A DNA stretch of 64,000 bases, from NCBI GenBank assembly GCA_041663485.1, contig JBAYMO010000001.1:11023-75022 (forward strand), written 5' to 3'. Origin of the DNA: Candidatus Buchananbacteria bacterium. Its GTDB lineage: Bacteria; Patescibacteriota; Patescibacteriia; Buchananbacterales; UBA6539. Below are positions 26,319-52,731 of the stretch, in pieces (within the stretch, counting starts at the first letter, position 1; the number at the start of each line of letters is the position of its first letter). The notes beneath the pieces were generated by a model. That model saw only the letters and a list, made by a program, of their open reading frames with translations, searched no databases and had not been told where the DNA came from. The position numbers were made by a program, and so were the translations under genes.

Positions 26319-26387
26319 AAATAAATTAAAAACAAAAAATTAAGAAATTAAAACCGTTAATCTTGTTATTTTTAATTTCTTATTTTC

Positions 26388-27974
26388 TTAAAATAGTGAC
26401 CTACCTTTCATTTCTTTAGCTTTGGCTAAGTTCATCAGTTTTAGAATAGTTGGCCCTACGTCCCCTAATTTTCCCTGGTGTAGTTTGCGGTTAATCTTTT
26501 TTGGCTCAATTAAAATAAAGGGGACGGGATTGCTGGTATGCTCAGTATAGACTTCTCCGGTTTTTAAATCAATCATTTTCTCAGCATTGCCATGATCAGC
26601 GGTAATAATTAAGGTTCCATGTTTTTTTAAAACCGCTGGGACCAATTTGCCCAAACACTCATCAACATGTTCAATTGCTTTAATACAAGCTGGCAAATTA
26701 CCGGTATGACCAATCATGTCAGGCGAAGCCAGGTTAGCGCAAATGAATTCAAAACGTGATAAGCTAGAAATTACTTTGTTAGTAACTTTGGTCGTCGACA
26801 TGGCTGGCACTTTATCATAGCTATCAACATGAGGTGAAGCGATATTTATCCTCATTTCACCATTAACGGCATGATCATAACCACCATTAAAAAAGAATGT
26901 GATATGAGCGTATTTTTCCGTTTCCGCGATATAAATTTGTTTATTGCTCGGTAAAATTACCGGCAAAGTATTAAGTAAATCGGCTGAAGGATAAGCGGTC
27001 AAAATCGAATCTAAATCCGGGCCGAAATCGGTCATGGCTACAAAAACTATGTTTTTTAGAATCTTGGCACGTTTAGCAAGACCGGGATTTTTTTTCTCAA
27101 ATTCAACTTGCACGAATGGTTTAGCCAACTGACGGGCGCGGTCGCTGCGTAAGTTAAAGAAAATTATCGCGTCATCGTCGTCAATGCGTGGCACCATTTT
27201 CCCCTTACGCTTAATCACAAACGGCTTGATGAATTCATCAGTAATATTGGAATTATAGGAACGCGAAATACCTTCTTGAGGACTATTGGCCACTGCCACT
27301 TCTTTACCATCTACCATGGCGTTATAAGCTGAAATGGTTCTTGACCAAACCTTTTTGCGATCCATGGCATAAAACCTGCCGATAACCGTCGCAATCCACT
27401 CACCGGACTTTTTACCATTTTCTTTATTTTTCATCTGACGCATCAAAGCTTCAATTAATTTTAAGGAAGCATGCTGAGGTGAATCACGACCATCAGTAAA
27501 CAAATGAAGATAAACGTTAGGAATTTTTTTCAGCCGCGCCCAGGTCAGCAAAGCCAAAAGATGGTCCGGATCACTATGGGCGCTTTGGCCATCGGATAGC
27601 ATGCCCATTAAATGCAAATTGGATTTGTTTTCGATTACGTGCTTATAAGCCGCTTCAAAAGCCGGATTCTTAAAAAATTTTCCCGTGCTAATATCTTTAC
27701 CAATACTAACCGCGTCCTGATCAACCAGCCGGCCAGCACCTAAATTCATATGTCCTGCCTCGGAATTTCCGTGCTGTTTGGGCGGCAGACCAACATATTT
27801 ACCTGAAGCAAAAAGCTGCGTATGGGAATAGTTTTTCCACAAACGATCAAAGACCGGCTTTCGCGCTAGCTCAATGGCATTACCTTTATTTTTTGGCGCC
27901 AGTCCCCAGCCATCCAAAATCAATAAAACTACCGGCGGTTTTTTTTGATTAGCTTTATTTTTTAGTTTAGGCAC
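26388..27974 (-). CDS. Second, divergent iPGM-family phosphoglycerate mutase paralog
   Basis: 528 aa; GNSEAGHMNLGAG and ADHGNAE motifs, arranged in tandem with gpmI. Confidence 0.8.
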   Translation of the reverse strand: MPKLKNKANQKKPPVVLLILDGWGLAPKNKGNAIELARKPVFDRLWKNYSHTQLFASGKYVGLPPKQHGNSEAGHMNLGAGRLVDQDAVSIGKDISTGKFFKNPAFEAAYKHVIENKSNLHLMGMLSDGQSAHSDPDHLLALLTWARLKKIPNVYLHLFTDGRDSPQHASLKLIEALMRQMKNKENGKKSGEWIATVIGRFYAMDRKKVWSRTISAYNAMVDGKEVAVANSPQEGISRSYNSNITDEFIKPFVIKRKGKMVPRIDDDDAIIFFNLRSDRARQLAKPFVQVEFEKKNPGLAKRAKILKNIVFVAMTDFGPDLDSILTAYPSADLLNTLPVILPSNKQIYIAETEKYAHITFFFNGGYDHAVNGEMRINIASPHVDSYDKVPAMSTTKVTNKVISSLSRFEFICANLASPDMIGHTGNLPACIKAIEHVDECLGKLVPAVLKKHGTLIITADHGNAEKMIDLKTGEVYTEHTSNPVPFILIEPKKINRKLHQGKLGDVGPTILKLMNLAKAKEMKGRSLF

Positions 27975-50697: not shown

Positions 50698-50750
50698 TTG
50701 TGATTAAGTTTATTTTCGTTTATAATAAAAGTAGACAAAAGTGGACAAAA
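50698..50750 (+). promoter_or_regulatory. Promoter (TTGTGA-17-TATAAT) with tandem 10-bp direct repeats GT(A/G)GACAAAA at the predicted transcription start site (TSS) (candidate operator)
   Basis: ttgtga at 50698-50703, tataat at 50721-50726, repeats at 50731-50740 and 50741-50750. Confidence 0.45.
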
Positions 50751-50766
50751 TATTTTTAAACAATTT

Positions 50767-51363
50767 ATGACAAAATTTTTAAAACCTAAAGACTTAGCCG
50801 AATATTTAGGCGTGAGCAAAAAAACCATTTTTCGCTACCTTGCCTCCGGCCAAATTAAGGCCATAAAAATCGGCCAATGGAAAATTGAGCCGCATGATTT
50901 TAATAAATTTTTGAAAAAAAATTTAATCACCAAGAATCGCCAGGCCGTCAAACTAATGCGCCCCCAGGCAAAAACCGCTTTTAATCTGCCGCTTTATCTT
51001 TCCCCGGTCGCCGCCGGCTTCCCCTCCCCGGCCGAAGATTTTATTGAAGACCGGCTTGATCTAAATTTATATTTAATCAAAAATCAACCGGCCACCTTTT
51101 TAGTCAAAGTCCAAGGCCATTCCATGATTGGTGCCGGTATCAATGAAGGTGATATCTTGGTAGTTGATAAATCACTGCCCAGCCAAGACGGAAAAATCGT
51201 GATCGCGGTTTTGGACGGCGAATTAACAGTTAAACGCCTGAAAAAAATAAAAAATCAACTATACTTAATGCCGGAAAACCCCGACTACCAACCAATTGAA
51301 ATTAAAAAAGAATCAGAGTTAATGATTTGGGGCGTGGTAGTTGGCGTAGTCAGAAAATTATAA
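50767..51363 (+). CDS. umuD: UmuD-like S24 self-cleaving peptidase fused to an N-terminal excisionase/MerR-type HTH (LexA-like architecture)
   Basis: The C-terminal 130 aa align nearly residue-for-residue with E. coli UmuD (GFPSPAEDFIEDRLDLN...GHSMIGAGINEGDILVVD...VLDGELTVKRL). The N-terminal 70 aa, LKPKDLAEYLGVSKKTIFRYLASGQIKAIKIG, is an Xis-family HTH. The AG cleavage site is VAAGFP. Confidence 0.8.
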   Translation: MTKFLKPKDLAEYLGVSKKTIFRYLASGQIKAIKIGQWKIEPHDFNKFLKKNLITKNRQAVKLMRPQAKTAFNLPLYLSPVAAGFPSPAEDFIEDRLDLNLYLIKNQPATFLVKVQGHSMIGAGINEGDILVVDKSLPSQDGKIVIAVLDGELTVKRLKKIKNQLYLMPENPDYQPIEIKKESELMIWGVVVGVVRKL

Positions 51364-51460
51364 TAGACCGATGCTAATTTACGAATGCATACGAATAATA
51401 CTAATTCAATAATATTCGCATCATTCGCATTTATTCGTATTCATTAGCATCGGTTAATAG
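51361..51460. mobile_element. MITE-like 88-bp element with 12-bp perfect terminal inverted repeats and a 6-bp target-site duplication (TAATAG), inserted between umuD and umuC
   Basis: accgatgctaat at 51367-51378 and attagcatcggt at 51443-51454; flanking TAATAG at 51361-51366 and 51455-51460. The interior is built from ACGAAT/ATTCGCAT-type subrepeats. Confidence 0.45.
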
Positions 51461-51471
51461 TATCGCGAAAT

Positions 51472-52731
51472 ATGTTTGCTCTGATTGATTGCAACAATTT
51501 TTATGCTTCCTGTGAAAGACTGTTTAATCCCAAGCTGGAAAATTTCCCGGTTGTGGTTTTATCTAACAACGACGGTTGTGTTATTGCCAGATCTGAAGAA
51601 GCCAAAAAACTTGGTATTGCCATGGGCCAGCCTTATTTTGAAATCAAAAAACTAGCCGAGCAAAAACTGGTACATGTCGCCTCTTCCAATTTTTCCCTTT
51701 ACGGTGATATTTCTCAAAGAGTGATGAATATCTTGCATTATTTTATTGACGAAATAGAAATTTATTCCATTGATGAGGCCTTTATTAATTTAGACCAAAT
51801 TAAAAAATCGGATTTAACTGCTTTCGGTTTAGATATCAGAAAGACTATCAAACAGTGGACCGGCATTCCCGTTTCCATCGGTTTGGGATCAACCAAAACT
51901 TTGGCCAAAGCCGCCAGTAAAGTGGCCAAAAAACAACCTCAATTTGGCGGAGTAGTAAATTTTATTAACAACCCAGCCATTGATTCTTGGCTTGACCAGA
52001 TTGCAGTTGACGATATTTGGGGCATTGGCCGGCAATATGGCAAACTTTTAAAAAGTTTAAATATCGCCACGGCCCTGGACTTTAAAAAGCTACCGCCCGA
52101 TTGGATTAAAAAAAATCTAACCAGCGCCGGCCTGACAACCTGGCAAGAAATTAACGGCCAAGCTTTGGTTGATTTTGAAAAAGAAAAAAGTCAAGCCAAA
52201 AGCATTATCAGTTCACGATCTTTTAAGCAGCCTATTAGAGAACTTGGTGCGTTAGAAAAACTCGTTGCCAGCTACACGGCTCGCGCGGCGGAAAAACTCC
52301 GAGCTGACCGGCTCAAGGCCAAAGAAATTTCAGTTTATATCCGCACTAATCGTTTTAACCGAGAAAACTTTTATTTTAATTCGACTAAAATTAAACTGAA
52401 CCCACCGACCGATTACTCCCCCGAATTAATCACCCAAGCGCAAATAGCTTTAAAAAAAATTTTTAAACCGGGTCTGCCTTATAAAAAAGCCGGCATTAGT
52501 CTGACGCAATTGGTGGATAAAAATTGTATTCAACCGAATTTATTTGAAAATAAAAACTTAGAAAATAAAAAAGAGCGCCTGATGCGCTGCTTGGATAAAC
52601 TTAATCAAAAATTCGGATCTAAAACCATTGGCTCGGCGGCGGAAAGTTTTTGCGGCGTCAGCTTTTTGGAACAAAGTTTTAAATCTCCCAGCTACACCAC
52701 CGACTGGCAAGAATTATTACTGGTTAAGTAA
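51472..52731 (+). CDS. umuC: Y-family translesion DNA polymerase (UmuC/Pol V-like)
   Basis: 419 aa; [16 protein letters not shown]-terminus typical of UmuC/DinB. Confidence 0.85.

Follow-up and report, generated by a model that had tools for sequence, protein, structure and literature searches.

Small palindromic repeats such as the repetitive extragenic palindromic (REP), the enterobacterial repetitive intergenic consensus (ERIC), the Correia and the BOX elements influence how operons are expressed and how stable the genome is in bacteria that have been studied in depth. The ERIC elements, also called intergenic repeat units (IRU), are enterobacterial imperfect palindromes of about 127 bp which are situated between genes within transcription units and are co-transcribed as long hairpins. 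RNA hairpins of Correia elements can be processed by RNase III, and there are bacteria in which ERIC and Correia hairpins have been shown to be cleaved or to protect mRNA ends. Almost nothing comparable is described for the candidate phyla radiation (CPR), a group with small and compact genomes that are regarded as poor in mobile DNA. The subject of this report is a near-palindrome of 88 bp at the junction of a umuD-like gene and umuC in a 64-kb stretch of DNA of Candidatus Buchananbacteria bacterium (contig JBAYMO010000001.1); the whole stretch is referred to as the window, and loci used for comparison carry the labels L003 to L051. On balance the evidence favours, with modest confidence, a copy of a small and previously undescribed family of non-coding palindromic repeats of Parcubacteria-group CPR, similar to miniature inverted-repeat transposable elements (MITEs), paired REP elements (REPINs) and ERICs, which is old, vertically inherited and present as an intercistronic hairpin. 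It is classed as a new family among the bacterial intergenic palindromic repeats and is apparently the first of them to be noted in Buchananbacteria-type CPR genomes. The parts of the element in the window are:

51361 to 51366, + strand: left TAATAG; it holds the stop codon TAA of the umuD-like gene (51361 to 51363), and its TAAT lies within a TATAAT at 51359 to 51364.
51367 to 51454, + strand: the palindromic repeat element, its orientation set by the family profile and co-directional with umuDC.
51367 to 51378, + strand: left terminal inverted repeat ACCGATGCTAAT; family consensus (A)AC(C)nGATGCYAAT.
51371 to 51405, + strand: left arm of four octamer units, namely ATGCTAAT (51371 to 51378), the degenerate TTACGAAT (51379 to 51386), ATACGAAT (51389 to 51396) and ATACTAAT (51398 to 51405).
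51406 to 51413, + strand: central loop TCAATAAT; loops vary among the family copies, and TCAATAAT is common to the orthologous remnant in L005.
51414 to 51450, + strand: right arm of four octamer units, namely ATTCGCAT (51414 to 51421 and again 51423 to 51430), ATTCGTAT (51433 to 51440) and ATTAGCAT (51443 to 51450).
51443 to 51454, + strand: right terminal inverted repeat ATTAGCATCGGT, the exact reverse complement of ACCGATGCTAAT; a T follows, as in all copies (GGTT).
51455 to 51460, + strand: right TAATAG, a possible target-site duplication of the window copy alone; the other family copies are without it.

The original prediction of an 88-bp element with perfect inverted termini of 12 bp, TAATAG on both sides and the umuD stop codon inside the left TAATAG agrees exactly with the sequence. 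The subrepeats which had been given as ACGAAT/ATTCGCAT are real and more regular than described: four octamers of the type ATRCNAAT in the left arm face four ATTMGYAT octamers in the right arm, with a period of 9–10 nt and an 8-nt loop between them. The inner arms are complementary as well (26 nt at 77 % and 15 nt at 93 %). The terminal 12-mer has no further match in the window at one mismatch or less (0.27 expected by chance), and two or more matches of it were obtained in none of 100 shuffles. A profile of the family scores the element with 78.4 bits on the + strand vs 62.1 bits on the − strand, and the covariance model R1 with 98.9 bits on the + strand. Furthermore, the element is identical in two more independent assemblies of the same population. 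What lies here is a hairpin-forming repeat that has been inserted and has inverted ends, not a palindrome that arose by chance. The large RNA hairpin proposed for the intercistronic region is also borne out as a predicted fold: the sense RNA (121 nt, + strand) folds with −30.7 kcal/mol (z = −4.1), and not one of 200 shuffles was equally stable. As single-stranded DNA the z values are −5.0 for the + strand and −5.8 for the − strand. The ATG of umuC is unpaired in the predicted RNA fold.

The open reading frames (ORFs) of the umuD-like gene (50767–51363) and of umuC (51472–52731) are separated by 108 nt, for which the inserted element had been held responsible. This attribution stands, since the element and one TAATAG make up 94 nt of the gap and the two genes overlap in relatives that are free of it. 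These more distant relatives, L006 and L007 (UmuC 62 % identical, same MacB/FtsX genes downstream), have no insert, and the overlap of umuD and umuC consists of ATGA. A closer relative, L005, is syntenic over 21 kb with 70 % identity of UmuC and about 76 % identity of the coding DNA to the window. Its umuD–umuC junction of 53 nt contains at the same site a 30-bp deletion derivative, CCGATGCCAATTCAATAATATTCGCATCGG, which is what remains of the window element after the loss of 27 nt from the left arm, bounded by CTAATT direct repeats, and of 29 nt from the right arm, bounded by GCAT repeats. On direct reading the surviving core is identical to the window at 30 of 32 positions (two substitutions). 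The site is thus filled in the window, occupied by a remnant in L005 and empty in L006 and L007. As the derivative lies at exactly the same site in a relative this far diverged, the insertion must be older than the split of the window and L005, and the notion of a recent event has to be given up. By these comparisons the element is an insertion relative to the compact umuD/umuC arrangement which predates the split and was later shortened in L005. In L008 (UmuC 69 % identical) the spacer of 136 nt harbours a different, terminator-like hairpin. It measures about 100 nt (L008 30–135, z = −5.1) and has a GGCGCAAAGCGCC stem between A-rich and T-rich arms of 19–22 nt, which gives it the look of a bidirectional terminator.

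Scans of public collections found relatives of the element at galU, rplN–rplX and rpsN–rpsH, all of them in CPR genomes other than the source genome. When the exact pair of termini was sought with a gap of 50–80 nt among 185,579 species, each represented by one genome, there was a single match, and this match is the galU copy. It is 83 bp long and located between a tRNA-Ser gene and galU in the metagenome-assembled genome (MAG) CAZHUO010000014. A scan of JGI metagenomes delivered a 2-kb contig with two copies in a ribosomal-protein operon; in its longer ENA version (L009) they are found in the rplN–rplX and the rpsN–rpsH spacers. These two copies within 2.8 kb are the sole multiplicity seen within one genome. 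The four copies at unrelated loci can be aligned over the full length with pairwise identities of 78–85 % and have the layout of four plus four octamers in common; for comparison, orthologous coding DNA of the window and L005 is about 76 % identical. The consensus of the termini is (A)AC(C)nGATGCYAAT ... ATTRGCATC(G)nGTT, with inverted pairs of 13–19 bp in the other copies, and AACCGATGCTAAT ... ATTAGCATCGGTT is the terminal pair by which an ORF-bearing partner of the family would be recognised. Differences between the copies are mirrored in both arms (GCTAAT/ATTAGC vs GCCAAT/ATTGGC; ACC/GGT vs CCCC/GGGG). At all four independent loci the element is in sense orientation and ends 2–23 nt before a start codon. 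Similar copies at unrelated CPR loci support a dispersed element that is mobile now or was so once.

Two further features of these contigs concern their assembly and naming. The contig of L004 begins inside an element (L004 1–97) and that of L044 begins 217 nt upstream of one (L044 1–217), which hints that the repeat breaks assemblies, so that the copy number in these genomes may exceed the counts on the contigs. The sequence CAZHUO010000014.1 (L003/L044) is titled 'uncultured Gammaproteobacteria bacterium'. Its GalU is 75–79 % identical to that of Candidatus Buchananbacteria and the gene content is CPR-like; the label is probably wrong.

The galU site shows filled and decayed states, too. A full copy is placed between a conserved promoter (TTTACA-17-TGTTATAAT) and the ATG of galU in four assemblies (L044–L047), one of which has an uncompensated change in a terminus. 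In L041 (GalU 92 % identical) a degenerate remnant of 50 nt is left at the same position, which does not fold (z = 0.2), and L051 (GalU 79 % identical) carries a divergent family member, about 100 nt long and weakly folding, whose ends are CCGAAT ... ATTCGG. An unrelated hairpin of 70 nt, built from ACTGGATTTACTGGCTA units, is present in the galU leader of L049 (GalU 80 % identical; −33.8 kcal/mol, z = −5.7):

L049, 9925 to 10000: unrelated galU-leader hairpin on a 922-kb Patescibacteria contig, in the slot that is held by the octamer element in L044.

By this comparison, the palindromic inserts at the galU site are old, turn over and decay by deletion.

With the ERIC/IRU elements it has several traits in common: a non-coding imperfect palindrome of about 90–130 bp, intergenic within transcription units, forming a long hairpin, with copies at orthologous sites across species and a low copy number in some genomes. 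However, there is no sequence similarity, the phylum is another one and the arms are here phased octamer arrays. ERICs also occur in both orientations, whereas the four loci are all sense. The Correia/NEMIS elements, MITEs of Neisseria with terminal inverted repeats of 26 bp, resemble the element in their inverted ends and in their insertion between co-transcribed genes. Moreover, their ends create or abut −10-like TATAAT boxes, and here TATAAY stands beside the left end. In contrast to the present element, which shows no consistent duplication and one copy in 73 kb, they duplicate TA and reach hundreds of copies per genome. Like REP/REPIN elements, which are mobilised by REP-associated tyrosine transposases (RAYT) of the Y1 type, the element consists of two inverted halves that form a long hairpin and no target duplication is found. 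Long vertical persistence at orthologous sites and concerted changes of the arms are further points in common. The GTAG-type REP motif is absent here, however, and no RAYT gene was encountered within the sequence covered; REPINs are usually present in tens to hundreds of copies per genome. The pneumococcal BOX and RUP repeats are likewise modular and intergenic, with tandem subunits in variable number (boxB being comparable to the octamer units) and stem-loops in the transcript, but BOX modules measure 45–59 bp instead of 8–10 bp, the ends of RUP are of the IS630 type with a duplicated TA, and there is no relation in sequence. In its workings the element resembles the ERIC, Correia, REPIN and BOX elements, with none of which it has sequence in common. 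From a classical MITE the element has the inverted termini, but not a target-site duplication of fixed length in all copies.

The designation as MITE-like can be kept for the inverted termini, the dispersed copies and the filled and empty sites, but it is not backed by a fixed target-site duplication, by a second copy in 73 kb or by a transposase in the sequence covered. The same holds in part for the claimed duplication of 6 bp. The TAATAG pair is present and not trivial for the window copy, as 6-mers identical at this offset occur at 5e-4 of the window positions (1.2e-3 for AT-rich 6-mers), but it is missing at the other three loci, where the flanks have only TA, TAT or T in common if the termini are drawn at AAC...GTT. 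In L005 the two flanks of the orthologous copy, TAATTG and TATTAG, differ from each other. A target-site duplication of TAATAG in the window copy therefore remains unproven. The absence of a consistent duplication fits better to a hairpin-recognising (Y1/RAYT-like) or a site-directed mechanism than to a MITE moved by a DDE-type cut-and-paste transposase. Three of the four independent loci have TATAAY at a distance of 3–6 nt before the GATGC core, and AATAAC is found at the fourth. By chance this would be expected with a probability of about 1e-6 to 1e-7, a post hoc estimate made once the pattern had caught the eye. The element may prefer such sites as targets, or the adjacency may be connected with −10 boxes.

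Window 51359 to 51364, L044 about 205 to 215 and L009 about 9 to 16: the TATAAY sites.

A direct reading of the TATAAT at 51359–51364 showed no acceptable −35 box, and the promoter scan made no call there.

The following course of events would account for the locus. A copy may have entered the umuD-like/umuC junction in an ancestor of the Buchananbacteria lineage, by transposition-like copying without a fixed duplication, so that an overlapping or abutting gene pair gained a spacer. Since then it would have been inherited vertically, intact in the window and with two repeat-bounded deletions of the arms in the sister lineage. The only promoter-like site of the operon detected by a consensus scan lies upstream of the umuD-like gene (50698–50726), and from this position the element would be co-transcribed with both genes. 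Folded in the umuDC transcript, it would give a hairpin of about 33 bp, imperfectly paired and situated shortly before the start codon of umuC, which would stay free. A likely consequence would be the loss of the translational coupling provided by the gene overlap. The hairpin could also serve as a double-stranded site for processing by an RNase III-type enzyme or for the protection of mRNA ends, and either loss of coupling or such a role of the hairpin could shift the ratio of UmuC to UmuD. An effect of the RNA hairpin on the expression of umuC, as put forward in the original prediction, is plausible but hypothetical.

For the window copy the sense RNA has −28.4 kcal/mol vs −40.8 kcal/mol for the minus-strand RNA; since the minus strand folds better, there is no sign of selection on the sense transcript of this copy. 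When both strands of every copy were folded, the sense strand was not the better one for the window and galU copies and the ribosomal-operon copies behaved in the opposite way. A consistent folding advantage of the sense strand across the copies was not found, and the strand-bias test neither supports nor excludes an RNA role. Covariation is too sparse to inform, with double changes in 2 of 23 pairs among the four independent sequences. Rfam 15 gave no match in the window at gathering thresholds, and a permissive Rfam search gave only generic miRNA-hairpin matches of at most 30 bits vs thresholds of 70–211 bits.

Mobility is supported by four unrelated sites, spread over at least three organisms, that carry the same elaborate sequence, by its dispensability in some lineages and by the filled and empty states. 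Several observations weigh against a dispersed repeat family. It is known from only four independent loci, and neither 73 kb of the source genome nor related loci totalling about 200 kb yielded a second copy. In the 64-kb window the search comprised the terminus with one mismatch or less, octamer clusters, an nhmmer profile and the covariance model; it was extended to a further 9.2 kb of the same genome (about 73 kb in total) with the same outcome, so that the anticipated other copies in the source genome have not come to light there. There was neither an autonomous partner nor a transposase within the sequence covered (the window and the fetched loci, including the 73 kb of the source genome), and a RAYT (Y1) gene was not found in these 73 kb either. 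No consistent target-site duplication runs through the family, and no recent presence/absence polymorphism was seen between close strains. Every copy is sense-oriented near a start codon; together with the conservation of the L005 core (30/32 vs about 76 % in the surrounding coding DNA) this could mean a selected cis-regulatory element. Nor is the sense RNA the better-folding strand in the window and galU copies. Viral contigs had no match to the strict pattern; a looser one-sided pattern gave 28 matches, all of them chance seeds without a second arm or octamers. Phage and plasmid collections had no match by blastn, and no description was found in the literature on CPR repeats and on the terminal sequence.

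The most serious alternative, which we regard as possible though doubtful, is a selected cis-acting module of leaders and intercistronic regions. A factor would read either the phased octamers in DNA or the hairpin in RNA and would set translation or mRNA stability; the module would sit before start codons of CPR genes without Shine-Dalgarno sequences, and copies at new loci would be rare and kept by selection. The uniform orientation with the downstream gene and the end of the element 2–23 nt before the ATG are in line with this, and so is the galU copy, which fills exactly the space from the promoter (TTTACA-17-TGTTATAAT) to the ATG. An unrelated strong hairpin (z = −5.7) in the same galU slot of another lineage, the TATAAY that precedes the GATGC core by 3–6 nt at three of four loci (with its post hoc probability) and a spacing of the octamers of 9–10 bp, about one helical turn, point in the same direction. 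In addition, the L005 core is conserved with its loop included, and copies in different lineages are more alike than neutral DNA should be. On the other hand, the element is dispensable, as seen from the non-folding remnant in L041, the 30-bp stub in L005 and its absence in L006 and L007, and galU, umuC, rplX and rpsH have no function in common. The lack of a sense-strand folding advantage and the double changes in only 2 of 23 pairs do not help such a module. A candidate factor is not known; the operator-like repeats GTAGACAAAA/GTGGACAAAA of the helix-turn-helix (HTH)-S24 protein encoded by the umuD-like gene differ in sequence.

A view which combines copying with regulation appears unlikely, yet deserves mention. 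A CPR-specific expression module might have three parts, namely a −10 box, then a hairpin with which the transcript begins or which separates two cistrons, and an immediately following AUG, with a dedicated factor that would read octamers or stem. Such a module might be copied between loci without target duplication, aimed at the 3′ side of TATAA, and might set translation or mRNA lifetime of genes that lack Shine-Dalgarno sequences, including the subunit ratio of the mutagenic polymerase.

That the element attenuates or terminates transcription at the umuD–umuC junction, and would lower UmuC relative to UmuD in this way, is very improbable. The hairpin is stable and has a GC-containing base, and the classical-looking bidirectional terminator at the L008 junction (GGCGCAAAGCGCC, z = −5.1) indicates that some lineages may favour a barrier at this place. 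However, the stem in the window is followed by TAATAGTATCGCG instead of a T-tract, a scan for Rho-independent terminators makes no call, and termination would do harm at other sites of the same element, namely in the galU leader and between ribosomal-protein genes that are essential. Local growth of a palindrome by slippage and template switching from a short L005-like ancestral hairpin, with no mobility involved, would suit the slippage-prone tandem arrays of the arms, the short direct repeats which bound the length differences between the window and L005 and the different repeat-built hairpin at the galU site of L049, but can hardly be entertained, as independent growth cannot make termini of 12–15 bp, octamers and a four-plus-four layout agree between four unrelated loci of different organisms.

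Several known classes of elements were rejected on period, consensus or context. The units of TIGR arrays, which are common in CPR, are repeated in tandem, measure about 36 nt and have two variable spacers, and the arrays lie beside a Tas gene with a Nop domain (PMC12045711); here the period is 9–10 nt, the repeats are inverted and not tandem, and the neighbours are the umuD-like gene and umuC. An integron attC site has the R''/R' core sites RYYYAAC ... GTTRRRY, and on direct reading this consensus is matched neither at the right ends (GTTAATA, GTTTATG) nor at the left ends (ATTAAAC, ATAGACC). ARG or DnaA-type boxes were discarded on the same grounds, as were the octamers as operator of the HTH-S24 protein, whose promoter has different repeats (GTAGACAAAA, GTGGACAAAA) nearby. 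A leader peptide starting at the ATG in the terminus (GATGC) was dismissed, too: the ORFs have 5–24 codons, and neither frame nor sequence is conserved among the copies.

If the repeat family is accepted, it shows that such repeats exist in CPR, persist at orthologous sites across species and decay via repeat-mediated deletions. Sensitive positions are affected: a ribosomal-protein operon has copies inside it, the galU leader holds one, and another separates the subunit genes of the SOS mutagenic polymerase. At umuDC a structured spacer would take the place of the usual overlap-based translational coupling and could alter the dosage of UmuC. Should the regulatory explanation be true, the element would offer a handle on translation starts in CPR without Shine-Dalgarno sequences.

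The operon around the element consists of the following features:

50698 to 50726, + strand: probable promoter of the umuD-like/umuC operon, TTGTGA-17-TATAAT, from a consensus scan only.
50767 to 51363, + strand: upstream gene, a fusion of HTH_17 and Peptidase_S24 of 198 aa (amino acids), UmuD/LexA-like self-cleaving protein (PF00717, 1.5e-34; PF12728, 4.7e-12).
51472 to 52731, + strand: downstream gene, umuC-type Y-family DNA polymerase (IMS, IMS_C, DUF4113); its ATG lies 17 nt past the element.

A UmuC protein identical to that of the window is attributed to a Candidatus Buchananbacteria MAG, a lineage of the CPR/Patescibacteria. The upstream gene had been taken for umuD, which holds for the UmuD-like Peptidase_S24 domain, but the protein is no plain UmuD, as an N-terminal HTH_17 is fused to it. 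HTH_17 is a DNA-binding domain, and an Ala-Gly cleavage motif of the UmuD/LexA type is present (PVAAGFPSPAEDF); the HTH-S24 protein may be an SOS-type repressor of its own operon and an accessory subunit of the polymerase at once. Between the predicted promoter and the ATG of the umuD-like gene (window 50727–50766) the direct repeats GTAGACAAAA and GTGGACAAAA are found, and similar repeats, GTGACAAAG and GCGACAAAAC, occur upstream of the umuD-like orthologue (L005 9270–9350). Both pairs are candidates for the operator of the HTH-S24 protein.

Other inverted repeats were noticed as well. The ribosomal-protein operon of L009 is unusually rich in palindromes, with more long inverted repeats in the rpsH–rplF spacer (CCCCCACACTCAAAAACAGT ... 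ACTGTTTTTGAGTGTGGGGG) and after rplF (L009 1771–2002 and 2545–2800). In the window, an AT-rich inverted repeat (AAAAAATTAAGAAATTAAAA / TTTTAATTTCTTATTTTCTT) is located between two genes of the same strand (26320–26389). It may represent a second palindrome family or mere low-complexity terminator arms. It has an exact 15-mer in common with the L008 junction hairpin. AAATTAAGAAATTAA is found at window position 26337 and in the L008 junction; these are the only two exact instances, and the sequence is of low complexity.

Downstream of galU and a gene for a solute-binding protein, a conserved array of at least ten tandem paralogous T4SS_pilin (PF18895) genes is found in Buchananbacteria-type genomes:

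L044, 2634 to 9164: T4SS_pilin array, which is also present downstream of galU in L041, L049 and L051.

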